64,000 nucleotides of DNA from assembly GCA_036559345.1 (NCBI GenBank), contig DATBTL010000246.1:2657-66656 (forward strand), read 5' to 3'. The notes below the pieces were generated by a model that worked only from the letters and a program-made list of their open reading frames with translations, was not told the DNA's origin and did no database searches. Of the stretch, positions 3,648-39,765 are shown piece by piece; positions within the stretch are counted from its first letter, which is position 1; each line of letters begins with the position of its first letter. This DNA is from Chloroflexota bacterium (GTDB lineage Bacteria; Chloroflexota; UBA5177; JANWHV01). The translations under genes and the position numbers were made by a program.

Positions 3648-4490
3648 TTAGATGTGGTAGATACGCTCGGCGGTCCCGCCCAGCACCGCGGCGATCTCTT
3701 GATCGGTCCGCCCGGCCAGGGCGCGATTCGTCTCGGCCCATACCCGCCCGTAGTCGCCAGCTAGCACGCACACCGGCCAGTCGCTCCCGAACATCAGGCG
3801 ATCAGCGCCAAAGCAATCAAAGGCATGATCGATAGAGGGCTTGAGGGTCGCCGCCGACCAGTTTTCGGGGTCGGCGGCGGTATTGAGACCGGAAATCTTG
3901 GCATGGACGTTCGGGTACCGGGCGGCCTCGGCCAATTGGCTCGCCCACGGCTCCATCACTCCGGCTTTGATCGGCGGCTTGGCCAGATGATCGATAACCA
4001 AGGTGAGCTCGGGGAAGAGCGACGCCAGGGTGGGCACGTGCTTCAGATGGTGCGGGAAGACGGCAACTACCTCGAAAATGAGCTTGCGGTCCGCCACGGT
4101 TTGCAGCCCGCGGAGCACCTGGCCCTGCACCACCCAATCGGGATCCGGCTCGTCATGGATCAAGTGGCGGATGCCGCGAAACTTCGGGTGTTCCCGGTAA
4201 CGGTCGAGCGCTTCCGCCGCCTCAGCTGGTTTCAGGAGCGGTGCCCAGCCGATTACCGCCCCGATCCAGGGGTACTGGTCGGCCTGCCGCAGCATCGCGT
4301 CGGTATCCTCGTAGGAGTTCGCCGCTTGCACGAGGACGGTGGCGTCTATGCCCGCGGCGTGGAGTTGAGGCTCCAACTCAGGTGGCGCATAGGTGCGGAA
4401 TAGTGGTCCAAATTCCGAGGTTAACCATGGGTAGGTACCGGTTTCCAGATTCCAAAAGTGTTGGTGGGTATCGATCTTCCTGGTGGCCAT
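3648..4490 (-). CDS. Amidohydrolase-2 family protein (sugar-acid lactonase-like)
   Basis: N-terminal KIDTHQHFW metal motif and length typical of fucono/rhamnono-lactonase-type amidohydrolases. ATG 4490 (GTG 4493 possible). Same strand as the mutarotase and dehydratase. Confidence 0.8.
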   Translation of the reverse strand: MATRKIDTHQHFWNLETGTYPWLTSEFGPLFRTYAPPELEPQLHAAGIDATVLVQAANSYEDTDAMLRQADQYPWIGAVIGWAPLLKPAEAAEALDRYREHPKFRGIRHLIHDEPDPDWVVQGQVLRGLQTVADRKLIFEVVAVFPHHLKHVPTLASLFPELTLVIDHLAKPPIKAGVMEPWASQLAEAARYPNVHAKISGLNTAADPENWSAATLKPSIDHAFDCFGADRLMFGSDWPVCVLAGDYGRVWAETNRALAGRTDQEIAAVLGGTAERIYHI

Positions 4491-4525
4491 CACGCTACTC
4501 CACCGGCGCTATGCCGCTGCTTGCG

Positions 4526-4540
4526 GGAACGATTGCGAAA
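4526..4540. promoter_or_regulatory. LacI-type operator-like motif, copy 1 (GGAACGATTGCGAAA)
   Basis: The reverse complement TTTCGCAATCGTTCC matches copy 2 (TTTGCAATCGTTACC) and the copy at 9495. Lies in the divergent intergenic region between the lactonase operon and the LacI gene. Confidence 0.4.
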
Positions 4541-4652
4541 TATAGGGTTGGCGAGCGCACCCAAGACTTGCACACGCTATGAACGAGGAGTCTGACATGC
4601 GTCTCCTTGGGCCCGTCTTCTATCGTTGAGCGCGGAGCCATGGTAACATAGT

Positions 4653-4667
4653 TTTGCAATCGTTACC
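4653..4667. promoter_or_regulatory. LacI-type operator-like motif, copy 2 (TTTGCAATCGTTACC)
   Basis: Central CG with imperfect dyad. Flanked by TGGTAAC (4641-4647) and GTTACCA (4662-4668). About 75 nt upstream of the LacI ATG. Confidence 0.4.
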
Positions 4668-4742
4668 AATAGAATGGTCCGGCGGATCGCGGGCCGGCTA
4701 CCTGTCGCGACCGCCAGGCGCGCGGATGATACGGGAGGGTGC

Positions 4743-5786
4743 ATGGGCGTCACGCTGAAGGAGCTTTCGGACAGCCTGGGGCTCTCCACATCCACGGTGT
4801 CGCGAGCCCTGAGCGGTCGGGAGTTCAAGCGGGCGTCCACCCGTGCCCAGGTGACGAGGATTCTGACGCGGGCGGGGGAGCTTGGCTACGAGCCCAATGG
4901 CCTGGCCCGGAGCCTCAAGACGAAGCGCCGCCGGGTAATCGGACTCATCTTACCGGACATCATGAACGACTACTACGCGGCGGCGGCCACCCAGGTTCAG
5001 GCGACCCTGGCAGCGGCCGGCTATCAGGTCATTCTCTGTGTCACGGGCGACGACCCGGCGATCGAAGCGGCGCAGCGGCGCCTCCTGCGAGAGGAGCGCG
5101 TGGCGGGGATGGTGGTGGTGCCGAGCCCCCAACTGGGACCCGCCCATGGCATGCCAGGCCTCCGGTCCGCCATGCCGGTGATCGAGTTGGTTCGCCACGG
5201 CGTTAATTCGCGGGACGACGCGGTATTGATTGACGATGTGGATGCCGGAAGGCAAGGTACGGAGCACCTGCTCGGTCTCGGGCATCGCCGGATCGCGGTC
5301 CTGACCGGACCAAGTACGTTCAGTACGTCGCGCCTCCGTCTCGATGGCTATCGCCAGGCGCTCGGGCAAGCGGGAGTCTCGATCGATCCGGCGATCATTC
5401 AATCCGGCCCCTATCGGCGGGATGCGGCGCGCGTGGCGACCAGCGCCCTGCTCGGAGGGCGCGACCGGCCGACCGCCCTCATCGCCACCAGCAACGAATT
5501 GGTGATCGGCGCCTTGCAGGCGCTCGCCGCCCAGAACCTCCGCGTACCGGAGGACATCTCGCTGGTCGGTTTCGGCAACGCCGACTGGTTCGCGTTGCTT
5601 CGGCCCGCGCTCACCACGCTCGCGTTGCCCATCCAGGAAATGGCCATGGCGGCGGCGCACCTGTTGTTGAAACGGATCCGTCTGCTCGACGGCCCCAATT
5701 CCGCCTACGACACGGCGCCTATCGTCGCGCGCTACCAGGCGCAACTGATCACGCGCGAGTCAACCCGCCCCCTGGCCGTTTCCTGA
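4743..5786 (+). CDS. LacI family transcriptional regulator
   Basis: ORF 4674..5786 trimmed to ATG 4743 (GGGAGGG RBS). N-terminal HTH VTLKELSDSLGLSTSTVSRAL plus a periplasmic-binding-fold C-terminus. Confidence 0.9.
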   Translation: MGVTLKELSDSLGLSTSTVSRALSGREFKRASTRAQVTRILTRAGELGYEPNGLARSLKTKRRRVIGLILPDIMNDYYAAAATQVQATLAAAGYQVILCVTGDDPAIEAAQRRLLREERVAGMVVVPSPQLGPAHGMPGLRSAMPVIELVRHGVNSRDDAVLIDDVDAGRQGTEHLLGLGHRRIAVLTGPSTFSTSRLRLDGYRQALGQAGVSIDPAIIQSGPYRRDAARVATSALLGGRDRPTALIATSNELVIGALQALAAQNLRVPEDISLVGFGNADWFALLRPALTTLALPIQEMAMAAAHLLLKRIRLLDGPNSAYDTAPIVARYQAQLITRESTRPLAVS

Positions 5787-5818
5787 AGTGGGTTGGCGAA
5801 GGACCGGCCGCGGCCTGC

Positions 5819-6745
5819 CTATTGGCCTTGCAAGCTGCCGCCCAGCAGCCCGGCCGCCCAGTATTTTCTGACCGCGACAAACAGGATGGCCACTGGCAGG
5901 GCGATGAGGAAGGCTCCGGTGATCACGTCCATGATGCTGATCGCCGAGCCGGCCGCTGAACTTGCCTGACTGCCCAGGGCGGTCTGGGCTGCCATGTTGC
6001 CCAATCCTACCGGCAGCGGCATCAGGTCGTCTCGCGCCTCCATCAAGAAAGGGAGGAAGAAGTTGTTCCAGTTGCTGACGAAGGTGAGCATCGCCACCGT
6101 GGCCAGCACGCCACGGGAGGTTGGGAGCGCGATGAAGCCAAAGATCTGGTATTCATTGGCGCCGTCAATGCGCGCCGCCTGCATAATCTCGCCGCTGAAC
6201 TGGAAACTGAAGAAGCTATAGCAGAGCCAGACACCGAAGGCGCTGGCGCTGGTCGGCAGGATCACCCCCCAGGGCGTGTTCACGATGCCGAGCTTCGAGC
6301 CTTCCAGATAGATCGGCACCGCCAGGGTGGTAGACGGAATCAACAGGGCGATAATGGTGATGAACAGCAGCGTCGTACGGCCGCGGAAGCGATACTTCGC
6401 CAGACCGAAACCGGCGGCCGCGCTGGTCACGATGACGATCGCGACGCTCGGGATCGTGTAGAGCAGCGAGTTTTTCGTCCAGGTCAGGAAGATCGAGCTG
6501 TTGTAGTTCAGCACATGGGTCACGTTGTCCCAGAGGCGAAACGACGAACCAAACCACAACGGTGACGAGGCGAATACGTCTTCCTTCGTCTTCATGCTCG
6601 CGACGATCAGCCACAGCACTGGGGCGAGAAAGTAGTAGCACAGGACGGCGAGTACCGCGGTTACCCCGAGATTGGTCAGGCGGCGGCGAAGGCGATAGTT
6701 GGTGGCCGTGGCCTGCTTTGGCGGCATTACGTTTCGCATCTCCAT
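5819..6745 (-). CDS. Carbohydrate ABC transporter permease
   Basis: The long ORF 5819..7276 overlaps the upstream permease, so it is trimmed to ATG 6745 (ATG 6739 has better GGGGGA spacing). Multi-TM with the EAA-like loop AARIDGANEYQIF. Confidence 0.85.
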   Translation of the reverse strand: MEMRNVMPPKQATATNYRLRRRLTNLGVTAVLAVLCYYFLAPVLWLIVASMKTKEDVFASSPLWFGSSFRLWDNVTHVLNYNSSIFLTWTKNSLLYTIPSVAIVIVTSAAAGFGLAKYRFRGRTTLLFITIIALLIPSTTLAVPIYLEGSKLGIVNTPWGVILPTSASAFGVWLCYSFFSFQFSGEIMQAARIDGANEYQIFGFIALPTSRGVLATVAMLTFVSNWNNFFLPFLMEARDDLMPLPVGLGNMAAQTALGSQASSAAGSAISIMDVITGAFLIALPVAILFVAVRKYWAAGLLGGSLQGQ

Positions 6746-6756
6746 CGTCCCCCGTG

Positions 6757-7701
6757 CTAGTCGCGCTCTTGCAACTGATAGATGCCGGAACGCCAGACAA
6801 AAAGGATGGCGAAAATGGAGGCGATGAAGAGCAGCAGCATCGCCGCCGCCGCCGCCAGGTTGAAAAAGCCGGATTGGAAGCTGATATTGTAGGCCCACAT
6901 ATTGGGCGTGAAGGTCGCGGATATCGATAAGGTATTCTGTAGTAGGTATGGTTCCGTAATCAAGGTCAAGACATAGCTGGTCACGCTGACCACCATCAGC
7001 ACCAGGACCGGCAAGAGAAGCGGAAGCTTGATGTGCCGGACCACGCCCAGTGCCCCTGCTCCCTCGATCCGCGCCATCTCCACCAACTCTTGCGGTATGC
7101 CGGCAAGCGATGCGGTCAGCACGATCACCCACGCCCCCACGTTCTGCCACACCACGATGTTCATGATCGCGTAGGGCAAGGTGGTTGGGGTGGAGAAAAA
7201 GAGAAGATCCTGGGCGCCGATGCGGTGCAGGAGCGGACCGAACACGCTGGAATCGGGCGAGAAGTTGAATGCCCACAAAATGGTCGAGGCGGTGGCGGGA
7301 ATGGCAAACGGAAGAAAGATGAGCAGCTTGATCAGGCCCTTGCCCCAGCCGGCCTTGCTATCGAGGATCAGGGCCACGACCGTGGCGATGATGCAAAAGA
7401 GCGGCGCCAAGGTGTAGACACACCGCCAAATTACCCCTGCCGCCGCCTGGAAGTCTGAGTCGTTGATCACCGCGCCGTAGTTGTTGAGGCCGACAAACTG
7501 ACCGGTCTGATCGGATTGCAGGCTGTTGTACAACGAGTACAAAGCCGGGCCGAGGCTGAACGCGAAGAGCAGGATGAAGAAGGGCGCGACAAACACCCAG
7601 GGTGCTACACGGACGCCGGCCAGGGCCGAGCGCCGGTGCCTGGAGCCGGGGCGAGGGATGAGCGTTCCCTGCGTCTGAGCCGATGTGTCCGTGGTCGCCA
7701 T
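6757..7701 (-). CDS. Carbohydrate ABC transporter permease
   Basis: Six hydrophobic segments and the EAA loop MARIEGAGALGVVRHIKLP typical of CUT1 permeases. Confidence 0.9.
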   Translation of the reverse strand: MATTDTSAQTQGTLIPRPGSRHRRSALAGVRVAPWVFVAPFFILLFAFSLGPALYSLYNSLQSDQTGQFVGLNNYGAVINDSDFQAAAGVIWRCVYTLAPLFCIIATVVALILDSKAGWGKGLIKLLIFLPFAIPATASTILWAFNFSPDSSVFGPLLHRIGAQDLLFFSTPTTLPYAIMNIVVWQNVGAWVIVLTASLAGIPQELVEMARIEGAGALGVVRHIKLPLLLPVLVLMVVSVTSYVLTLITEPYLLQNTLSISATFTPNMWAYNISFQSGFFNLAAAAAMLLLFIASIFAILFVWRSGIYQLQERD

Positions 7702-10912: not shown

Positions 10913-11880
10913 GCGCGCGATGGTCAGGTGAGCGTCTCCTGGGACTCTATCGCGGGATGTATCTGATCCGGCGCTTCGAGGAGCGATGCCTGGAGCTCAG
11001 CCGGAAGGGGCTGATTCCTGGTTCGGTTCACCTCTGCGTCGGCCAGGAGGCCGTGGCCGTGGGGGCGGCGGACGCCCTGCGGCCCGACGACCTGACGGTG
11101 ACCACCTACCGCGGCCATGGCCACGAATTGGCCCGCGGCATCGATCTCAGGGCCGCGATGGCCGAATTGCTGGGCCGGCGGACGGGCCTCTGCAAGGGGA
11201 GGGGAGGCTCGATGCACCTGACCGATATCAGCCATGGCGTCCTGCCGCCCAACTCGATCGTCGGCGGCGGCTTGCCAATTGCCACCGGCGCCGCGCTGGC
11301 CCAGATGCATCAGGGCCGCGATCGCGTCGTCCTCTGTACCTTTGGCGAGGGTACGCTCAATCAGGGCGGCGCGCACGAGGCGCTCAATTTGGCCGCCATC
11401 TGGAATCTACCGGTCATCTTTCTGTGCGAGAACAACCAGTATTCGGAGATGACGCCGGCCTATCAGATGATTAAGGGCGACAGCTTTGCCCCGCGGGTCG
11501 CGGCGTACGGGATGCCTACGCACACGGTGGACGGCATGGATGCACAGGCCGTCGCGGAAGCCGTGGCCCCGGCAGTAGCGCGGGCGCGCGCGGGCGCCGG
11601 ACCGTCGTACGTGGAGGCGGACACCTACCGCTTCCTCGGTCACTATCAGGGCGATCCCGGCACGGGGTATCGTCCGGCCGAGGAAATCGCGCGCTGGCGG
11701 GAACGCGATCCGTTACCCAGGCTGGCCGAGTCGCTAGCCGCCCAGCCTGGATTCGCGCGGCGACTGGAGGCCGAGGAACAGGCGGTCGAGGAGGCGCTGG
11801 GCGCGGCGCAACAAGCGGCGCTTGAGGATCCGTGGCCATCCCGGGACGAGATCGAGGAGGGGCTGTATGCCGCCGGCTAG
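10909..11880 (+). CDS. Thiamine-diphosphate-dependent 2-oxoacid/acetoin dehydrogenase E1 alpha subunit
   Basis: YRGHGHELARG, GRGGSMHL and GGGLPIATGAAL motifs. ATGA overlap with the preceding gene. Confidence 0.9.
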   Translation: MSARWSGERLLGLYRGMYLIRRFEERCLELSRKGLIPGSVHLCVGQEAVAVGAADALRPDDLTVTTYRGHGHELARGIDLRAAMAELLGRRTGLCKGRGGSMHLTDISHGVLPPNSIVGGGLPIATGAALAQMHQGRDRVVLCTFGEGTLNQGGAHEALNLAAIWNLPVIFLCENNQYSEMTPAYQMIKGDSFAPRVAAYGMPTHTVDGMDAQAVAEAVAPAVARARAGAGPSYVEADTYRFLGHYQGDPGTGYRPAEEIARWRERDPLPRLAESLAAQPGFARRLEAEEQAVEEALGAAQQAALEDPWPSRDEIEEGLYAAG

Positions 11881-12880
11881 CGTCTCGAACCCGGTTGATG
11901 CCGCGACCCGTGTGCTAACCTATGCCCAGGCGCTCAATCTGGCGCTGGCGGAGGAATTGGAGCGTGACCCGTCGGTCATCCTGCTGGGCGAGGATATTGG
12001 CGCCTACGGGGGAGTGTTCGGGGTGACGCGCGACCTACAATCGCGTTTCGGCGCCGGACGGGTGCGGGATACGCCAATCTCGGAGACCGGCTTTCTCGGA
12101 TGCGCGGTGGGCGCCGCGATATGCGGACTCCGGCCGGTCGCGGAAATCATGTTCGTCGATTTTACCCTGGTCGCCCTGGATCAAATCGTCAACCAGGCGG
12201 CGAAATTGCCGTTCCTCACCGGAGGGCAAGTGCAAATGCCGCTGGTGTTCCGCACCCAACAGGGCGCGCGCCCCGGCACCGCCGCGCAGCACTCACAGTG
12301 CCTGGAGGCGATATTCGCCCATGTGCCGGGTCTGAGGGTGGTGGCGCCGGCCACGCCGGCGGACGCGCGCGGATTGTTAAAGTCAGCCATTCGCTCCGAT
12401 GATCCGGTCCTCTTTTTGGAGCACAAGGGCCTCTATGCCACCAGTGGTCCGATCCCGATCGAGGAGCAGCTCGTACCGCTTGGCAAGGCTAACGTCGTCC
12501 GCGCGGGCAGCCAGGTCACCGCCCTGACCTATTCCGCGATGCTGCCGGTCGTGCTGGCCGCCGCCGACGCCCTGGCGGCGGAGGGAGTCTCGGTGGAGGT
12601 GATCGACCTGCGAACCCTGGCGCCCCTGGACCAGGAGACCATCGTGGCCTCGGTCAAACAGACCAATCGGGTCGTGGTGATCCACGAGGGTTGGCGGCGC
12701 GGTGGGTATGGGGCCGAGGTCGCCGGCACGATTCAGGATCTTGCCTTCGACTGGCTCGACGCACCCATAGGGCGAGTCGGGGCGCGTGATATTCCCAAAC
12801 CGTTCTCGGCGGCCTTTGATTCGACCTATCTCCCTACGGCGGAAACGGTCGCCGCCGCCTTGCGCGCCACCCTCGACTGA
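11867..12880 (+). CDS. 2-oxoacid/acetoin dehydrogenase E1 beta subunit
   Basis: ORF trimmed to ATG 11867, overlapping the alpha stop. LGEDIGAYGGVFGVT..RVRDTPISE and a transketolase-like C-terminus. Confidence 0.9.
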   Translation: MPPASVSNPVDAATRVLTYAQALNLALAEELERDPSVILLGEDIGAYGGVFGVTRDLQSRFGAGRVRDTPISETGFLGCAVGAAICGLRPVAEIMFVDFTLVALDQIVNQAAKLPFLTGGQVQMPLVFRTQQGARPGTAAQHSQCLEAIFAHVPGLRVVAPATPADARGLLKSAIRSDDPVLFLEHKGLYATSGPIPIEEQLVPLGKANVVRAGSQVTALTYSAMLPVVLAAADALAAEGVSVEVIDLRTLAPLDQETIVASVKQTNRVVVIHEGWRRGGYGAEVAGTIQDLAFDWLDAPIGRVGARDIPKPFSAAFDSTYLPTAETVAAALRATLD

Positions 12881-32179: not shown

Positions 32180-33321
32180 ATGAGCACAGCCCCGCAGGTG
32201 CATTTTGCGACCCTCGATGCAGTCCTGGAACGGATCACCTACGCCAATGAGGAGACCGGCTATACCGTCGCCCGCGTCGCCACCGCACAGGGCGGCAGTG
32301 GCCTGCTTACCGTGGTCGGCTCCCTGCTTGGCGCACAGCCGGGCGAGAGTCTCCGCCTGCGCGGTGTCTGGAAGTCGCATCCACAGTGGTGCTGGGCTTG
32401 GGATCCAAGCGCACGTCGATGACCGGTCGGGCCTGGGAGGAACAGAAGGCGATCAAGGAGGTCATGCTCTTTCTCCAGGGGGTGGGAGTGTCCACCTCGC
32501 TCGTCGTGCGCATCTATAAGACCTACAGGGACGCCAGTATCTCCGTGGCCAAGAACGAGCCCTACAAGCTGGCCGGAGATGTGTGGGCCATCGGCTTCAA
32601 GACCGTCGACACGATTGCGCAGGCGATGGGCATCCCGCACGATAGCCCCCCAACGGGTCAAGGTGGGACTCCAGTTCACGCTTTCGGAGGCCAGCAACGA
32701 AGGTCACTACTATCTCCCGCAAGCCGCCCTGATCGCCACCGCAACGGCGATTCTCACCGTGGAGTCGGTGCTTGTCGAGACCTGCCTGACGGATCTCTCG
32801 GAGGAGGAAGGGGTAATCACGGAGTATCTCCCAGGCCCTGCGGGCGGCGCGACAATCCCGGCCGTCTACCTGGTGCCGTTCTACCGCGCCGAGGTGTCAT
32901 TGGCGCACGGACTCCGCCGTCTGCTGCAGGCATCGACCGAGCGCTTACCGACTTTTCAGCGTGTGGACTGGGAGGCGGCTATGACATGGTTGCAGCGTAC
33001 GACCAGGAGCACGCTGGCGCCCGAACAGGGCGCGGCAGTCCGTCTGGCCCTGACCGAGAAGGTGGCGGTGCTCACTGGCGGCCCGGGCTGTGCGAAGAGC
33101 TTCACCGTGCGCTCCATTGTCACCCTGGCCCGGGCGAAACGGGCCAGGGTCGTCCTCGTCGCGCCGCCAAACGCCTTGCCGAACTCGCGGGCATGGAAGC
33201 CGCGATGCTGCACCGGCTGCTCCAGTTGCGGCCGGGCGGGCCACCGTACTGGTCCACCGCTCCAGTTGCGGCGCCGTGTCACCGGCGAGGCGAGGACGTG
33301 ATCGGGCCCCTGCGGCGGTGA
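32180..33321 (+). pseudogene. RecD2-like SF1 helicase pseudogene (frameshifted, internally deleted, 3'-truncated)
   Basis: The RecD2 N-terminus ERITYANEETGYTVARV..LLTVVGSL..GESLRLRGVWKSHPQW continues in other frames: WEEQKAIKEVMLFLQGVGVS..., then ...LTGGPGCAKSF, then RRAAKRLAELAGMEAAMLHRLLQL. At least three frame changes; helicase motifs beyond motif I/Ia are missing. Confidence 0.75.
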
Positions 33322-33358
33322 CGCGGGCGACCATGCTACAGCGCTGCTTAACCGGAGA

Positions 33359-33374
33359 TGTCGGATTTCCGACA
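33359..33374. promoter_or_regulatory. 16-bp palindrome TGTCGGATTTCCGACA (candidate parS, copy 1)
   Basis: 7-bp perfect arms. It is the exact reverse complement of the copy at 35537. Lies 109 nt upstream of parA. Confidence 0.45.
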
Positions 33375-33431
33375 GCATCTGACCCTTTTTGCACGGGATA
33401 CCGCTCGGGCCAGGGCGAAAATCCATGCATC

Positions 33432-33440
33432 TTGTCCACA
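33432..33440 (+). promoter_or_regulatory. DnaA-box-like 9-mer TTGTCCACA
   Basis: Exact match to the high-GC (actinobacterial-type) DnaA box form. A single copy, so chance occurrence is possible. Confidence 0.25.
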
Positions 33441-33482
33441 AACCCCTGGCAATACTCAACCACCACGCGTATAGTTTCTTCC

Positions 33483-34415
33483 ATGACTGCACAAGAAGGT
33501 AGGGTGTCGCGCGCTGGGACGACCGAACTCCTGAGTACGGCGAATGTCGCCGAGGCCCTGACCATCAGTCGGTCTCGCGTCCTGGCGCTCATACGCGGCC
33601 AACGGCTCCCAGCAATCAAGATAGGCCGTGAATGGCTGATCGAGAAAGCGGACTTGGGTATGGTGACTGAGCGACACGTTGGCAGACCACGGGCCGTGAT
33701 CTCCGAGCCCCCGGCGCCCAGGAAACCGGCGGGGCTGCCTGGGCAGGCGTCCAGTCCGCGCCCTGCCGCCTCTCCAGGGGCTCACCTAAGGCCGCGGACC
33801 ACCTATACGCTCGCGATCGGCGCCCAGAAAGGCGGGGTTGCCAAAACCACTACTACCCTCTATCTTGCCGCGCGCGCGGCGGCGCATTTTGGCAGCACGC
33901 CGGAACACCCAACCGTATGTATCCTGGATCGCGACGAAGCTCAGAATCTCTCGGTCCTTGCGCGCCTCGATCCAGACGTGATCGCGCCCGGTGTACGCTT
34001 ACTGGAGGGAAGCAATGTCCCCGCGCCGGCGCAGGGCTATCGCATGGTCCTCGTCGACACGCCGCCCGGGCTCGCGGCCCTGGATGCGTTGCGGGACGCT
34101 GACCTTCTGGTCGTGCCAGTGCTGGCGGAAAAGCAGGGGGTGGCCAACCTCTCGCAGTATCTGCGCCTGATCGAGGGACTGCGCCGCACGACCAATCCGC
34201 GGTTGCGATTGCTGGCCGTGCTCCCCACTATCGTGGAAAAGCGCAATGCCTTGCACCGCGATATGCTTGAGCTTATCGGACAGATTGCCGCCCAGCACTA
34301 CGCGCCGCTCCATGTGCTTCCCCCTATCCCGCGGGCGAATAGCATCGCGCGTGTCGATTTGCGCGCCACGGGGTATGACGCCGCTGCGAAGGAACTCTTC
34401 GATGCCCTCGGCTAA
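33483..34415 (+). CDS. parA: ParA-family partition ATPase with N-terminal excisionase/MerR-type HTH
   Basis: ORF 33090..34415 trimmed to ATG 33483. HTH LLSTANVAEALTISRSRVLALIRGQRLPAIKIGREWLI, then a Pro-rich linker, then deviant Walker A AQKGGVAKTT and Walker B MVLVDTPP. Confidence 0.9.
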   Translation: MTAQEGRVSRAGTTELLSTANVAEALTISRSRVLALIRGQRLPAIKIGREWLIEKADLGMVTERHVGRPRAVISEPPAPRKPAGLPGQASSPRPAASPGAHLRPRTTYTLAIGAQKGGVAKTTTTLYLAARAAAHFGSTPEHPTVCILDRDEAQNLSVLARLDPDVIAPGVRLLEGSNVPAPAQGYRMVLVDTPPGLAALDALRDADLLVVPVLAEKQGVANLSQYLRLIEGLRRTTNPRLRLLAVLPTIVEKRNALHRDMLELIGQIAAQHYAPLHVLPPIPRANSIARVDLRATGYDAAAKELFDALG

Positions 34416-35535
34416 GAGGCGGCGGGAAATCCAGTTCGCCGCTGATCTCCTGGGCGACGATCAGGGTGGCACACCATACGACAACGACGTCAAGGCAGCG
34501 GAGGGGTCGTTTCAGCGCATGGCCGACGCCTACCTGATTCCCATTCAGCGCCTCTCACCCAACCCCAACAACCCGCGACGCCAGATTACTCATCTTGAGG
34601 AACTGGCGGCGTCCATCGCCGAGACCGGACATGTGCTGCAAAACCTGGTAGTGCGCCGGCATCCCGACAACGCCGGATTCTACATCGTCACCGCCGGCAG
34701 CCGCCGCCTCGGGGCCGTGCAATTGTTGAATGATGGCGGTGTGCCCGGAGTGAGCGTCCATATCGACGCCCTACCCTGCGTGATCGAGGAAAGGTCGGCG
34801 GATCAAACCTATCTCGACGCATTGACCGAGAACGCCGCCCGGGAGGATCTTACCCGGGCCGAGCTCATGGATGCCGTCCTCTATATCAGCCGCGCCTACC
34901 GCTTCTCCGCCCGTGAAATCGCCAGGCGTATCGGGCGCCATCACTCAGACATCTCCGAATTGCTCGGCGTGGCGCGCGACGAGGAAGTGGCGACCCTTGT
35001 ACGAAGTGAGGTCATCAACACCAGCGTCGGCGCCGCCATTGCAAAGCAACCGCCGCCAGCGCGGCAGGAGATCCTGGCCGCCGTTCGGCAGCGGCATATA
35101 CGCACGGCGGCCGACGTAGCTCGCCTGGCAGCCAGGGTGACCCACAACGGCCTGCCGCCACGATCACCCGACTTCCCCGAATGGGATGGCGTCCCGGTCG
35201 CCCATCCCGGCCAGGATGCGGACGAGCCGGCCACGGTCTTTGTAACGCCCGTTGACACGAGCGCCAGGAACGCCGGCGTCCCCAACCAGAATCAACCGCA
35301 CGAAATCGAGCACTCCGCGCAATATCATGTAGGTCGTGGCGCCGCCGAGGCGCGCGCGGCGGCCCGGGACGGACTGCGCCGGGTCGCGCGCTTCCCGGAC
35401 CCTGAATTCCAGGCAGTACTCGACCTCCTTGCCTACGGCAGGGCATATCATCTGCAATGGCAGGTAGCCTTGCAGGAACTGCTGCAAGAGCGCGGCATGG
35501 TTGAACGAGAGCAACGTGCTGATGGGCCAAGCTGA
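34402..35535 (+). CDS. parB: ParB-family partition protein
   Basis: Trimmed to ATG 34402, overlapping the parA stop. IPIQRLSPNPNNPRRQ and VTAGSRRLGA (ParB box II-like GxxR), followed by HTH FSAREIARRIGRHHSDISELL. Confidence 0.9.
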   Translation: MPSAKRRREIQFAADLLGDDQGGTPYDNDVKAAEGSFQRMADAYLIPIQRLSPNPNNPRRQITHLEELAASIAETGHVLQNLVVRRHPDNAGFYIVTAGSRRLGAVQLLNDGGVPGVSVHIDALPCVIEERSADQTYLDALTENAAREDLTRAELMDAVLYISRAYRFSAREIARRIGRHHSDISELLGVARDEEVATLVRSEVINTSVGAAIAKQPPPARQEILAAVRQRHIRTAADVARLAARVTHNGLPPRSPDFPEWDGVPVAHPGQDADEPATVFVTPVDTSARNAGVPNQNQPHEIEHSAQYHVGRGAAEARAAARDGLRRVARFPDPEFQAVLDLLAYGRAYHLQWQVALQELLQERGMVEREQRADGPS

Positions 35536-35552: not shown

Positions 35553-35738
35553 CCACCCTCATGTTTCTACAGGGGGTGCGCCATGGTATCGACACCGACA
35601 ACCGAGGTGAAGGTCGGACGGCGTGGTAGAAAGCATGAATTGCCAGCACGGGGCACCAGGCGCATGCGCCGATCCATCGGAATCAGAACCCCTTTGAGAC
35701 TAGCAAGGTGGATTGGCTGAAGCGGGAAGGCTGCCGGG

Positions 35739-37556
35739 ATGGCTGAGGAAGATAACGGCCCACACACTGCCCATGAGGCGCGGATGGCCCTCGATTATGC
35801 TCGCGATCTCCTGAGAACGGCGGCAGCGGGGACTACCAAGGGCGGGTTGGGCGCCTTTCGCTCTGAGTTGGATCGCGCGCAAGAACAGCTCGCCACGGAT
35901 CCGGATGGCGCCCGTGCTCACGTCGATGCCGTGCTGGAGGCACTGGAGCAATTGGGGCTGCCGGGCAGTCATTCCGTGGACATGCTCGACGTGTTCTTCG
36001 CTCAATGGCGATCGTACGTCACCTTACGGGAGCAGCGGGGCGCACTTGCCGGCGATCCATGGCACAATGCGATGCTGTTCATCTGGACGGAGGACGGCGA
36101 GCCCCCACGCGAGAATTCCTTGCATATTCTCACCTGCCGCCTGCCTGGCGGGGACGAGCCGCCGTTTGTCCTCCCAACCAAGTTGCAAAAGAAGACCAGC
36201 CAGGAGCTCCTGCCCTGGATGACCTGGCGAGCGGATCAGCAGCCCGAGCTACAAGCCCTACAGCGGCCAGTCACGCGGTATGTGGCGCTCTACGTACGGG
36301 GTGAGCAACTCTGCTGGGACGCCTCGCCCGACTACCCCCTGTGCGACGAAGCGCCCGATGTGCGGACCCTGATGCTGCCGCCACGTCGGTGGGGCGAGCT
36401 TGCCGCGCTGCCGCCGGGAGAAGCGCCACGACCGACGCTCCCCGCACCGACACATCCATCCGCGCGTCCCGCCATGCCGGCCCCCTCAATCCTGGATCAA
36501 GATAATGTCGCCATCGGTTCGAGTACGCTCCTACCCCACACCTTCCGCGCCATGCGTATGCCTGGCCGATGGATGCGCCCCGGCAACGGCAATCCGCCGT
36601 ATTACGAGGAACTGCATGAGGGGGTAGCAGAGGCTGATCGGGTCAAAGTGCTGCTCCACCCGTCCGATGGCCGGAGCCCCTTGACTCCCGAGCAGGAAGC
36701 GGCGGCCTATGAGGCCGTGCTCGGTCTGGACGACGATAAGGTGCGCGCCTTCGCCATCGCGCTTGGCTCCTGGTTTGCCGGCACCGGCGGCGGTGACGCG
36801 CACATGCCCAAGGTCACGGTGACAGCCAACGCACTGCTGGAATTCCAGGGGGTCAAGCGCAACAAGGGCGCGTATAGACCAGCACAAAAGGAGAAGGTGG
36901 CCAATGATGTCTGGGCGCTGAATTCCATCTTCATTCGCGGGCCACAGGTCGTGTACGATGCGCGCGGTCGCCGCAAGATCGTAAAGGTGCGCTCCCGCCT
37001 GCTTGAGGTGGCGCAGGAGGACGAAACCAACCTACTGGGGGAGGACACTCCCTATGCCTTCCGCATCGCGCCGGGTGAGTGGATCAAACCACTGATTGAG
37101 GAAGGTACCCGCTACGTGGCTGTGTTGCTCTCTCCCGTCCTGCGCTACAACCCCAGACAGGGCGTGGAGTTGATCGCCATGCGCATTGGTCTTCATCTGG
37201 CCCTGCATTGGCGGTTCCGAGCGGCACAGGGCAATTTCGACCAGCCATGGAATATGACAACCCTGTTGGAGAGCACCGGGATTGAGATTCCGACGCACCG
37301 AGAACAGCGCAGGCGATTGATCGAGAACTTCGAGCGGGCCATGGACCGCCTGCGGGAGGACGGCGTGCTGGCAAGTTGGGAATACGTGCGCCTGGTGATG
37401 GAGGTGAATCCCACGGCCGTGTTCGCCGAGTGGATCACCCGCACGGTGCGCGTGATGCCGCCCCGGGCGGTGACCGATCAGTACGCGGGCATTGCCAGGC
37501 GGCATCGCTTAGAGGTGGCGGCGAGTAAGCGCCGTGCGCCGCGACAGACGGTTTAG
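35739..37556 (+). CDS. Hypothetical 605-aa protein (possible replication-associated protein)
   Basis: Long uninterrupted ORF with a GGGAAGG RBS. No family recognised. A Pro-rich linker (PPGEAPRPTLPAPTHPSARPAMPAP) separates two halves. It ends 10 nt before the first iteron. Confidence 0.75.
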   Translation: MAEEDNGPHTAHEARMALDYARDLLRTAAAGTTKGGLGAFRSELDRAQEQLATDPDGARAHVDAVLEALEQLGLPGSHSVDMLDVFFAQWRSYVTLREQRGALAGDPWHNAMLFIWTEDGEPPRENSLHILTCRLPGGDEPPFVLPTKLQKKTSQELLPWMTWRADQQPELQALQRPVTRYVALYVRGEQLCWDASPDYPLCDEAPDVRTLMLPPRRWGELAALPPGEAPRPTLPAPTHPSARPAMPAPSILDQDNVAIGSSTLLPHTFRAMRMPGRWMRPGNGNPPYYEELHEGVAEADRVKVLLHPSDGRSPLTPEQEAAAYEAVLGLDDDKVRAFAIALGSWFAGTGGGDAHMPKVTVTANALLEFQGVKRNKGAYRPAQKEKVANDVWALNSIFIRGPQVVYDARGRRKIVKVRSRLLEVAQEDETNLLGEDTPYAFRIAPGEWIKPLIEEGTRYVAVLLSPVLRYNPRQGVELIAMRIGLHLALHWRFRAAQGNFDQPWNMTTLLESTGIEIPTHREQRRRLIENFERAMDRLREDGVLASWEYVRLVMEVNPTAVFAEWITRTVRVMPPRAVTDQYAGIARRHRLEVAASKRRAPRQTV

Positions 37557-37566
37557 ACAGTGGTAT

Positions 37567-38024
37567 CCCTCATCGGATGTGACGCCACCGGGTCAGGGTT
37601 GTTGCAACAGACGTTTTGATTGGATGACCGTGCGCACATCCCCTCATCGGGTGTGACGCCGCCTTGTTCGTTGGCGAGAATATCCTCTTTACCCCTCATT
37701 GGGTGTGACGCATTGCTACCGCCCGCCAACAGTGTCGCGCGAACGAACGGTATGCGAGCCCATTCGGCTGGGCATCGAGAGCCGTAAAGGCCCGGTTGCC
37801 CGGGCACGGCGGCATCTGATCGCTCAGAGCACCGTCCGATTGTCCACCTGTCCTTCCGACAAGGGGAAACGCTCGGCGCCCCTCATCAGGTGTGACGCGG
37901 TCGCATGGATCTGACAAAGGAGCGGTGACACCGTGCTTTTCACCCTCATCTGATGTGACGCCCTCACGGGCCGTGGCGGAATCCCTCATGGACTGTGGCG
38001 GAATCCCTCACGAGGTGTGACGCT
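37567..38024 (+). repeat. Iteron-like direct repeat array (8 copies of a ~20-bp motif)
   Basis: Copies: CCCTCATCGGATGTGACGCC (37567), CCCTCATCGGGTGTGACGCC (37641), CCCTCATTGGGTGTGACGCA (37693), CCCTCATCAGGTGTGACGCG (37880), CCCTCATCTGATGTGACGCC (37943), degenerate CCCTCACGGGCCGTGGCGGA (37961), CCCTCATGGACTGTGGCGGA (37983), CCCTCACGAGGTGTGACGCT (38005). All lie on the same strand. Confidence 0.75.
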
Positions 38025-38049
38025 CAGCCAGAGAAAACGGCTTCCCTAT

Positions 38050-38067
38050 TAGATCTACTAGATCTAC
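38050..38067 (+). repeat. Tandem 9-mer TAGATCTAC x2 in a locally AT-rich patch (possible unwinding element)
   Basis: Two exact tandem copies, each containing GATC, 25 nt after the last iteron. Flanking CTATTAGATCTACTAGATCTACC is unusually AT-rich for this sequence. Confidence 0.45.
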
Positions 38068-38139
38068 CACGGGCCTTCATCACGGCGCTACCGGTGGTAC
38101 ATGTCAGAATAGAGGCGGCGAACACCAGGTTCCGCCACG

Positions 38140-39765
38140 GTGCGGGTATGTTCCCGCCGCGTGATAGGTGAAGAAAGGGACGTCAACGTGCAGGCTCAGG
38201 CGAGAATACGCGACCGAAGTCCGCGATGCGAGCGCGAGCGTGCCGCCAGACCAACACCCGACCAATCGCAAGACTACCCCAGCGGGCCAGACGCCAGCCA
38301 GCAATCGCGCGCCTCCGAGGGGTGCGCACAAGGGCAAGTCGCCCTGACCTGGTGCCCACCAGGGATAGGGTCCGCTAGGACCGGCGGTACCACCGCGCCA
38401 GAGGAGGAGGATCGCGACCGCCCTACCATTGTCGTCCAGGACACCGCTCATCGATCCGGGTTTACGCTTGTACCGAACCAGCTGCTCTTCGCCAGGGGCT
38501 TGACGCACGGCGCCAAGCTCACCTACGCCCTCTTACTGGGCTACGCATGGCAGGAGGGCAGTTGCTTCCCCGGGCAAGAGCGCCTAAGTGAGGATCTCGG
38601 TGTAGAGCGCAAGGCGGTCATCCGCTATCTCAAGGAATTGAAGGACAGCGGCATGGTGCGGGTAATCCGGCGTGGCCTCGGGCAAACAAATCTCTATATC
38701 CTGCCGAAGCTGGCAGATGTCGCGTTGTTGGCCAAGGAGCCAGTTTCATCGCCTGATGTCCCCCAAATCGGATATCAGCAAGTCCCGAGTCTGGGCCAAC
38801 CGGTTGTCTTGGGTAGCGGACACTACGTACACCCAGCGGACAAGACACAGAAAAGAAGTCATTCGATTCGACTCGACTCCTGTCAAGCGGAATCAATGCC
38901 TGTGGCGAAGGCGCCAATTACCCTGCTTGCGTCCCAACGGATGCGGTTACGCTCAGCTATCCGCGGTGAAGAGCCATGCCGCGACAAGCCGGATTCACCG
39001 CCCCAGGATAGCCAGTCTCCAGCTGGACTCACTGGGCACATCGCCCCAGGAGACTCCAGTCCCGCCGGCGCATGCGACGCCTTGGTGCGACCGCAAGCGC
39101 CAAATCGGTCATTCCGGAAATCCTCTTCCCGTGCCACGCGGCGGAATGTTGCGCCAGACGTGCCGCCGCATGAAGCCGAGAAAGCGGTGGCGGCGATCCT
39201 GGAACCGCTCCGCCGAACGTTCCGTGATGCCGCATCGAATCGGGCGACCATCACGCGGGCAGTACACCTTCTTGATTGCTCTGGGCTTGAATCAGCAGTG
39301 TTTATCCGGTTCTTGCACGAAGCGGCGGCACGCACGCGCGGCAGTCTACAGGTTGGCGTCATAACGAGTAACCCGATGGCGTATTTCTTCGCCTGCCTGG
39401 TCCAGCTTCTCGACGATACGGTCCATCCGGACGCTCCTCCTGAGCCCGGAAGGCCACGGAGGGCGGGACCGCCAGGAGGAGCGCCCAGCCATGACGCCGT
39501 GGCCTGTAGCCCCGACGATCATCCTCTTTGGGCGCGGGTACGGGAGGAACTGGCCGCCACCATCGCGGAAAGAAGCTACCGGGAGATGGTCGCGCCTACC
39601 CATGTGATCGCCGATGACGGGTTGGTGCTGCGCGTGGCGACGGGCTCCGCCTTTCAGCGTGACTGGCTCACCAATCGGCTTGGCAAGAGAATTACCGACA
39701 TCCTTTCCGACCTCGGCCGTGAGAACCCGCGGGTTGAATTTGAGGTGCCACAAACTGTTACCTAA
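38140..39765 (+). CDS. Putative replication initiator: wHTH (HTH_36-like) domain plus DnaA-N-terminal-like C-terminus
   Basis: FTLVPNQLLFARGLTHGAKLTYALLLGYAWQEGSCFPGQERLSEDLGVERKAVIRYLKELKDSGMVRV fits the plasmid/phage replication-protein HTH pattern. C-terminal LWARVREELAATIAERSYREMVAPTHVIADDGLVLRVATGSAFQRDWLTNRLGKRITDIL resembles DnaA domain I. Start is GTG 38140 or GTG 38188 (AAGAAAGGGA RBS). Confidence 0.7.
   Translation: MRVCSRRVIGEERDVNVQAQARIRDRSPRCERERAARPTPDQSQDYPSGPDASQQSRASEGCAQGQVALTWCPPGIGSARTGGTTAPEEEDRDRPTIVVQDTAHRSGFTLVPNQLLFARGLTHGAKLTYALLLGYAWQEGSCFPGQERLSEDLGVERKAVIRYLKELKDSGMVRVIRRGLGQTNLYILPKLADVALLAKEPVSSPDVPQIGYQQVPSLGQPVVLGSGHYVHPADKTQKRSHSIRLDSCQAESMPVAKAPITLLASQRMRLRSAIRGEEPCRDKPDSPPQDSQSPAGLTGHIAPGDSSPAGACDALVRPQAPNRSFRKSSSRATRRNVAPDVPPHEAEKAVAAILEPLRRTFRDAASNRATITRAVHLLDCSGLESAVFIRFLHEAAARTRGSLQVGVITSNPMAYFFACLVQLLDDTVHPDAPPEPGRPRRAGPPGGAPSHDAVACSPDDHPLWARVREELAATIAERSYREMVAPTHVIADDGLVLRVATGSAFQRDWLTNRLGKRITDILSDLGRENPRVEFEVPQTVT

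Follow-up and report, generated by a model that had tools for sequence, protein, structure and literature searches.

A proposed iteron-binding replication initiator from a large unnamed protein family in a Chloroflexota plasmid-like replicon

Which protein recognises the origin of replication is the question raised by a 64,000-nucleotide stretch of Chloroflexota DNA (the window; contig DATBTL010000246.1 of assembly GCA_036559345.1), in which an open reading frame (ORF) for a 605-residue protein ends just before a set of direct repeats, or iterons, with a second gene (38140) on their far side. An earlier note on this DNA placed the initiator function with the 38140 product and treated the 605-residue protein as an orphan that might be a second initiator, a replication accessory or handcuffing factor, or a centromere adaptor. 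We consider it likely, and likelier than any other reading discussed here, that the 605-residue protein is the iteron-binding, origin-recognition (Rep-type) initiator of a plasmid-like replicon; its DNA binding, its opening of the origin and the role given to the 38140 protein are inferred from sequence, predicted structure and synteny. The coordinates of all features are collected in Table 1, and related loci and proteins are referred to by L and P numbers respectively.

The protein is no orphan. A word-indexed search finds 13 close relatives, all unnamed, whose alignment is variable at the N-terminus and strongly conserved over residues ~260-605, and a full hidden Markov model (HMM) search with a profile of the 13, the kind of check proposed in the earlier note, reaches 884 clusters at 50% identity at a threshold of E<=1e-3, none of them named; 547 remain at E<=1e-10. 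These matches all run through residues ~315-600; ten distant clusters that were looked up have 'hypothetical protein' as their sole name, and a second word-indexed search with a diverse alignment does not reach beyond the first. The conserved domain has no match in Pfam, NCBIfam, PHROGs or PADLOC, nor among PDB sequences by phmmer and hmmsearch, in agreement with the earlier failure to assign any motif, and only an XRE-type helix-turn-helix (HTH) that some distant members carry N-terminally is recognised (by Pfam, NCBIfam and PHROGs). The family is large, and none of the domain libraries Pfam, NCBIfam and PHROGs describes it. Members are present on complete plasmids of Bacillaceae, Deinococcus, Haematospirillum and Paludibaculum, annotated as 'transcriptional regulator' or 'hypothetical', with family HMM E-values of 3e-82 for the Haematospirillum protein, 2e-49 for that of Bacillus mycoides, 4e-49 for Cytobacillus and 4e-34 for Deinococcus peraridilitoris. 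The GenBank phage collection (tblastn) and pattern scans of IMG/VR give no match, and metagenome and GTDB scans add only close relatives, from a Chloroflexota metagenome-assembled genome (MAG). The window itself is present in soil metagenome runs, and its closest genome relative is a Chloroflexota MAG.

Exactly 10 nucleotides (nt) separate the end of the stop codon (37556) from the first iteron (37567), as the earlier note had it. There are eight copies of CCCTCAN5TGTGRCG with at most one mismatch, all on the + strand and within 37567-38022, and no further copy at this threshold elsewhere in the 64 kb; the array is far beyond chance. The iterons are 19 nt long, the first being CCCTCATCGGATGTGACGC, and form a group of three spaced copies and an origin-proximal cluster, with a start-to-start gap of 187 nt between the two. 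Copies 37961-79 and 37983-38001 of the origin-proximal cluster are degenerate, and its last four members are phased at 18-22 nt. Beyond the last iteron lie a short post-iteron element and a tandem pair of the motif TAGATCTAC, which occurs twice in the window and nowhere else in it (0.05 expected) and is interpreted as a candidate DNA-unwinding element. The origin contains no DnaA boxes, nor was a further class of long repeats found there.

Iterons follow family genes in 10 lineages and are present in every Chloroflexota-type metagenome locus read. They are 19-23 nt long, lineage-specific in sequence, and start at the stop codon that ends the family gene or no more than about 50 nt from it (the window, L008, L001, L007, L003, L010, L012/L013, L022, L023 and L024). 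The close relatives L008, L001 and L007 (57-78% identity) retain the order of gene, iterons and HTH gene. The distant relatives L003, L010, L012/L013, L022 and L023 (25-41% identity) have the family gene, a gap of 200-300 nt and then a DnaB_C helicase gene, which is followed by a Toprim primase gene in four of these five lineages, the L022 contig ending in an unidentified gene. Integrases lie beside this module in L010, L013 and L023, ParA in L012/L013 and a terminase in L010. None of the five helicase-type loci has a 38140 homologue or an HTH_36 gene. They and L024 carry two or three (usually three) direct repeats of 22-23 nt, in tandem except in L024, and the three tandem copies are the counterpart of the origin-proximal cluster of the window; the group of three spaced iterons is absent from the mobile-element relatives, and its spacing is the same in L008.

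The core of the origin is kept across both module types. The iteron 3' half GGTGTGACGC is common to the window, L001, L007, L008 and L003, and in all five of these lineages the last iteron is followed by CAGAG(A/T)AA... and then an AT-rich tandem repeat, so that the post-iteron element CAGAGnAAA and the AT-rich repeat are found in the HTH-partner loci and in the helicase-type locus L003 alike. The TAGATCTAC tandem repeat itself is kept in L001, L008 and L007, with related AT-rich tandem repeats at the equivalent position in L003, L010 and L012. In L035/L036 and L037 an HTH_36-DnaA_N relative of the 38140 protein is encoded next to parA without a family member, as is an HTH_36-only relative in L038, and no comparable iterons are present at these loci. 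Because family loci without HTH_36 keep their iterons and the stand-alone HTH_36 loci have none, the iterons travel with the 605-residue family and not with the HTH_36 family. Gene neighbourhoods, which the earlier note proposed to survey, tie the iterons to the family gene in the loci read, the 38140 partner occurring with it only in close relatives.

The iteron arrangement of the window (37567-38023) is almost identical to those of L008 (7381-7848) and L001 (9909-10393), with spacings of 74, 52, 187 and 63 nt followed by ~22-nt phasing. This near base-exact agreement holds between lineages whose initiators are 63-78% identical, and the 187-nt spacer contains conserved patches.

The full-length structure model is mediocre, with a mean predicted local distance difference test score (pLDDT) of 66, and its only significant matches in the PDB are to domains 2-3 of RctB (E 6e-5, probability 1.0), which form the Rep-like core of winged helices in the initiator of Vibrio chromosome 2 (PMC5397143). 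An AlphaFold2 model of residues 255-605 built from a 22-sequence alignment has a pLDDT of 89.5 and a predicted template modelling (TM) score of 0.87. Its secondary-structure order (helix-helix-strand-helix-helix-wing, twice) fits two winged-helix units, with extra beta-hairpins in the first, and the C-terminal domain is predicted to be a tandem winged helix (WH1-WH2). RepE54-iteron complexes are its top Foldseek matches (7sgc_C, probability 0.99, target-normalised TM-score 0.50), with the complex of Rep, iterons and DNA-unwinding element 8aan_A at a probability of 0.96 and target TM-scores of 0.48-0.50 over these matches; in BFVD the second match is a 'Replication initiator protein' (E 3.7e-4). 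The modelling and Foldseek comparison that the earlier note had suggested yields a predicted tandem winged helix whose best PDB matches are replication initiators. Its impression of 'RepA-type logic' in the C-terminal half holds at the level of fold (RepE54, RctB domains 2-3) but not of sequence, where no Rep family matches.

The predicted recognition helices vary together with the iterons across a sample of nine lineages. The sequence PTHRE(Q/S/E)RRR stands at the N-terminus of the WH2 helix in all four aligned proteins of the GGTGTGACGC lineages and in no others, with P0013, at an overall identity of only 41%, among the four. Where the iterons are different, so is the sequence at this position, NSKHFTRF being found in both lineages with the iteron ...CCCCCCTCAG(T/G)TGGGGAGT. 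The window protein and P0003 have the same predicted WH1 helix and the same iteron 5' half, CCCTCATC; in P0007 and P0013 helix and 5' half have diverged in step. Such a pattern would be expected of WH2 and WH1 domains that each read one half of the iteron. It also speaks against the order of roles proposed in the earlier note, which is probably inverted, given that the iterons follow family genes without HTH_36 and are absent at stand-alone HTH_36-DnaA_N genes.

Table 1. Coordinates of the proposed initiator gene, its predicted domains, the iterons and the adjoining features in the window.
Feature	Position	Strand	Remarks
605-residue ORF, proposed iteron-binding replication initiator	35739..37556	+	ORF call, homologues, structure models
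Shine-Dalgarno-like GGGAAGG	35724..35730	+	8 nt upstream of ATG; direct reading of sequence
N-terminal acidic region, residues 1-210, isoelectric point (pI) 4.8	35739..36368	+	Model confidence low to medium
Pro-rich linker, residues 211-255, predicted disordered	36369..36503	+	12 Pro in 45 residues
Conserved basic C-terminal domain, residues 256-605, pI 9.8, predicted tandem winged helices WH1 and WH2	36504..37553	+	
Family motif GGYRxEQK and predicted WH1 recognition helix, residues 376-395, KGAYRPAQKEKVANDVWALN	36864..36923	+	Helix 381-394 in models
Predicted WH2 recognition helix, residues 518-541, PTHREQRRRLIENFERAMDRLRED	37290..37361	+	
Three spaced iterons, candidate copy-control sites	37567-85, 37641-59, 37693-711	+	Spacing 74 and 52 nt
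Origin-proximal iteron cluster	37880-98, 37943-61, 37961-79, 37983-38001, 38005-23	+	Span 37880..38023
Post-iteron element CAGAGAAAACGGCTTCC	38029..38045	+	Kept in L001, L008, L007 and helicase-type L003
CTATTAGATCTACTAGATCTACC, tandem TAGATCTAC pair, candidate DNA-unwinding element	38046..38068	+	35% G+C in a 64% G+C window
Partner gene, HTH_36 (residues 120-171) and C-terminal DnaA_N (residues 463-523)	38140..39765	+	Pfam 46.4 and 33.1 bits, above cut-off
parA (HTH_17 N-terminal segment) and parB, partition genes	33090..35535	+	Just upstream of the 605-residue gene

A mechanism can be proposed from these observations. The two winged helices of the basic C-terminal 350 residues would read the two halves of the 19-nt iterons, WH2 (helix PTHREQRRR...) the GGTGTGACGC half and WH1 (GAYRPAQKEKV...) the CCCTCATC half. 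Monomers would load and oligomerise on the phased origin-proximal cluster, and the loaded protein would open the adjacent AT-rich TAGATCTAC tandem repeat. The three spaced iterons would be additions of the large-replicon clade, plausibly serving copy-number control by titration or handcuffing, the latter being a possible second activity of the initiator at these sites. The ancestral module, which persists in prophage- and plasmid-like elements, would have consisted of initiator, iterons with AT-rich repeat, DnaB-type helicase and primase; in the clade of the window the helicase/primase slot would be taken by the 38140 protein, with its HTH_36 and DnaA domain I. In DnaA itself the DnaA_N domain contacts the replicative helicase, and the 38140 protein for this reason probably serves as a co-factor in recruiting the replicative helicase of the host.

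Several observations weigh against an initiator role of the 605-residue protein. The resemblance to known Rep proteins is confined to the fold, and the sequence-level tests fail: Pfam searches across 22-36 diverse members give no Rep family even at E<=10, and hhalign against a small Rep_3 alignment of six sequences (F RepE and five plasmid relatives) gives a probability of 2.1%, collinear over 182 columns, so that membership of Rep_3 by sequence is rejected. The Foldseek E-values of the good model are modest (0.013-0.15), with TM-scores of about 0.5 on the target only, and the co-variation is confounded by phylogeny in a small sample. The repeats are weaker or lie upstream in the plasmids of Bacillaceae and Deinococcus. 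In Cytobacillus an array of AxTGGTGCATTT (at least four copies) is upstream of the gene and not downstream, and in Deinococcus only two repeats follow the family gene. In a search for a complete plasmid with a member as its sole initiator, Deinococcus pDEIPE02 gave a result that can be read either way, having no annotated Rep but a primase-polymerase gene. On the Haematospirillum jordaniae plasmid NZ_CP014527.1 (L016) the member, annotated 'helix-turn-helix transcriptional regulator', lies at 4008-5888 directly after a RepC-type (RP-C) gene, and no iterons were found around it; this suggests that the family can pair with other winged-helix initiators. Lastly, the HTH_36/DnaA_N protein of the window, which resembles an autonomous initiator elsewhere, flanks the same iterons.

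The last two points lead to the strongest alternative, namely that the 38140 protein is the true initiator and the 605-residue protein binds the iterons only as a regulator, acting in copy control or handcuffing or repressing the gene downstream. Proteins with HTH_36 and DnaD_N are commonly annotated as replication initiators (PHROGs), the architecture of the 38140 protein occurs alone beside parA on plasmid-like contigs, the three spaced iterons beside the gene resemble control iterons, and on the Haematospirillum plasmid a family member adjoins a RepC initiator gene. We nevertheless think this unlikely. In the five mobile-element lineages the whole module is made up of family member, iterons, helicase and, in four, a primase, and no other candidate origin-binding protein is present; the origin core is conserved between both module types; and the partner diverges faster than the family protein (55% against 78% identity in L008, recognisable by its HTH only in L007, as DnaD_N/HTH_36, and degraded-looking in L001), whereas the iteron 3' half is constant. 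An origin with two initiators, the 605-residue and 38140 proteins together, is possible, and it is kept in view along with 38140 as initiator because 38140-type proteins look autonomous elsewhere.

Distinctly less probable is a non-replicative DNA-binding protein that happens to lie near an origin, either a transcription factor of mobile elements or a partition or centromere adaptor acting with ParAB. The gene does follow parA-parB directly and in the same orientation, and distant members with an N-terminal XRE-type HTH are annotated as transcriptional regulators. However, parAB linkage is not conserved, being divergent in L007 and absent in L003, L010, L022 and L023, whereas linkage to iterons and helicase (usually also primase) is; the centromere-adaptor proposal of the earlier note is for this reason not supported. 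The best fold matches are replication initiators rather than ParB or typical one-domain regulators, and domain library searches find no ParB_N or HTH_ParB domain in the protein. Least likely of all, and to be given very little weight, is a helicase loader or adaptor with no recognition of DNA sequence, the iterons being bound by a host factor or the partner: the position immediately upstream of helicase genes in mobile elements, and an acidic N-terminal half that could be a protein-interaction module, would suit such a role, but the conserved domain is basic and predicted to be a tandem winged helix, its recognition helices co-vary with the iterons, and it is the N-terminus that varies within the family, not the DNA-binding-like domain.

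As a proposed Rep-type initiator, the 605-residue protein can be compared with RepE of plasmid F and others of the Rep_3 type (pi of R6K, RepA of pPS10). It shares with them the predicted tandem winged-helix fold and a gene that adjoins direct iterons of ~19-22 bp, phased at ~22 bp, beside an AT-rich repeat. A second set of iterons usable for copy control also lies beside the gene; in plasmid F, the incC and oriS iteron sets lie around repE. It differs in having no detectable sequence homology (no match to Pfam Rep_3; 2% by hhalign), in its length (605 residues as opposed to ~250), in the 250-residue acidic N-terminal region plus Pro-rich linker and the extra WH1 beta-hairpins, in an origin without DnaA boxes, and in the partner of its family, either an HTH_36-DnaA_N protein or a helicase and primase of its own.

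The distant members invite comparison with phage modules of the form origin-binding protein, helicase, primase, such as lambda O/P and SPP1 G38P-G40P. Like these modules and those of integrative and conjugative elements (ICEs), they combine initiator, origin, DnaB-type helicase and Toprim primase, here beside integrases and one terminase. Unlike in these, the origin is downstream of the initiator gene and not inside it, and the initiator has a double winged helix with no similarity to O-like or DnaD-like PHROGs.

RctB, the initiator of Vibrio cholerae chromosome 2, is a large protein of several domains, the central ones being winged helices of the Rep type (PMC5397143). No structure is matched better by the full-length model, and the gene for the 605-residue protein likewise lies with parAB on a large replicon carrying metabolic genes. 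The 605-residue protein differs from RctB in that there is no sequence similarity, searches of PDB sequences with the single protein and with the profile being without RctB chains; in that there is no evidence here for a domain 4, 39-mers, crtS or methylation-dependent 11/12-mers; and in the host phylum, here Chloroflexota. A study of the superfamily of winged-helix replication initiator proteins reports that about a quarter of these have no Pfam annotation (bioRxiv 10.1101/2024.09.03.610885). Its double-winged-helix superclade resembles the family described here, which has two predicted winged helices, is initiator-like and is invisible to domain libraries; the main text of that study contains no mention of Chloroflexi, Deinococcus or RctB, and literature searches brought up no paper about iteron replicons in Chloroflexi. 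Overall, the 605-residue protein probably works in the manner of the RepE- and RctB-type initiators, without membership by sequence in a known Rep family and with a distinctive architecture and partner.

A more speculative proposal, which we regard as tentative and somewhat doubtful, is that this two-protein origin arose by module exchange. A phage- or ICE-like double-winged-helix initiator would have been captured by a large Chloroflexota replicon, its helicase and primase replaced by an HTH_36 and DnaA-domain-I protein that hands the opened origin to the host helicase, and extra spaced iterons added for low-copy control.

Turning to the ORF itself, it runs on the + strand from the ATG at 35739 to a stop codon at 37554-37556, a genuine long reading frame with a candidate ribosome-binding site, as noted earlier. 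The copy of the protein in the database (P0001) has 590 residues and begins at M16, a start chosen by the gene callers of the public collection. The first 15 residues (35739-35783) are kept in P0002, 87% identical, which makes the 605-residue start plausible; the Shine-Dalgarno-like sequence stands ahead of the upstream ATG in spite of the public M16 start. The description of the N-terminal half as acidic and helical stands, with partial helicity and helices predicted at the N-terminus, and in both the alignment and the profile matches residues 1-210 are kept only within the close clade. The Pro-rich spacer formerly placed at residues ~215-245 is likewise real, and residues 226-261 have a pLDDT below 50 in the full-length model. 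In PADLOC, residues 9-71 (35763-35951) weakly match JetA/DUF3375 (E 2.4e-4, 18 bits), which we regard as noise and probably a chance similarity of helices; an eS10 winged-helix-like match (E 0.16) is regarded as noise as well. The 605-residue protein has no Pfam match to HTH_36 or DnaD_N.

The database copy of the 38140 protein has only 421 residues, and its 541-residue start is uncertain on that account. At the L001 (P0003) locus the partner gene, at 10933-12252, retains a weak HTH_36 remnant only. A long ORF of this partner runs into the next gene (adh_short), and an insertion sequence (DDE_Tnp_IS240) lies upstream of parA; the L001 partner may be decaying while the 613-residue initiator-like gene and the iterons are intact. 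The combination of HTH_36 (or DnaD_N) with a C-terminal DnaA_N recurs beside parA on plasmid-like metagenome contigs without iterons, and such stand-alone genes may represent a separate undescribed class, either plasmid initiators or helicase recruiters.

Upstream of the 605-residue gene, the ParA ORF (33090-34415) carries, in front of the ATPase, an excisionase-like HTH_17 segment at residues 147-189. Small HTH_17 genes lie directly upstream of family members in L003 and L022, and L038 has an HTH_17-ParA fusion. The parA and parB ORF starts overlap by 170 nt, and the true starts are therefore probably later. A RecD2/YrrC-type helicase gene is spread over three frames (OB_YrrC 32180-32422, HHH_RecD2 32386-33321, AAA_19/AAA_30 32579-33301); being broken across frames and truncated before parA, it is a pseudogene remnant abutting the replication and partition block. 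A window-level scan found no sigma-70-like promoters, the 64 kb contain no tRNAs, and the GC skew of the window is uninformative. On the Cytobacillus oceanisediminis plasmid NZ_CP062791.1 (L026), which is 281 kb long and has no MOB-suite replicon type, A(A/G)TGGTGCATTT repeats at 4809-5446, in both orientations, immediately precede the family member at 5488-7209; this array is possibly an unrecognised origin of the plasmid.

To our knowledge, no replicon biology has been described in Chloroflexota. If the 605-residue protein is the initiator, a function would be assigned to a large unnamed family of at least 884 clusters at 50% identity, and Chloroflexota plasmids or chromids and related prophage-like elements that are missed by typing tools would gain a replicon marker and a predicted origin. 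The co-variation of helix and half-site offers a directly testable recognition code, and the replacement of helicase and primase by an HTH_36-DnaA-domain-I protein is a testable case of mobile-element replicons becoming dependent on their host. If module exchange did occur, it would represent an independent, RctB-like route from a mobile-element replicon to a chromid, and the family would supply the Rep that is missing from untyped plasmids of Bacillaceae, Deinococcus and others.

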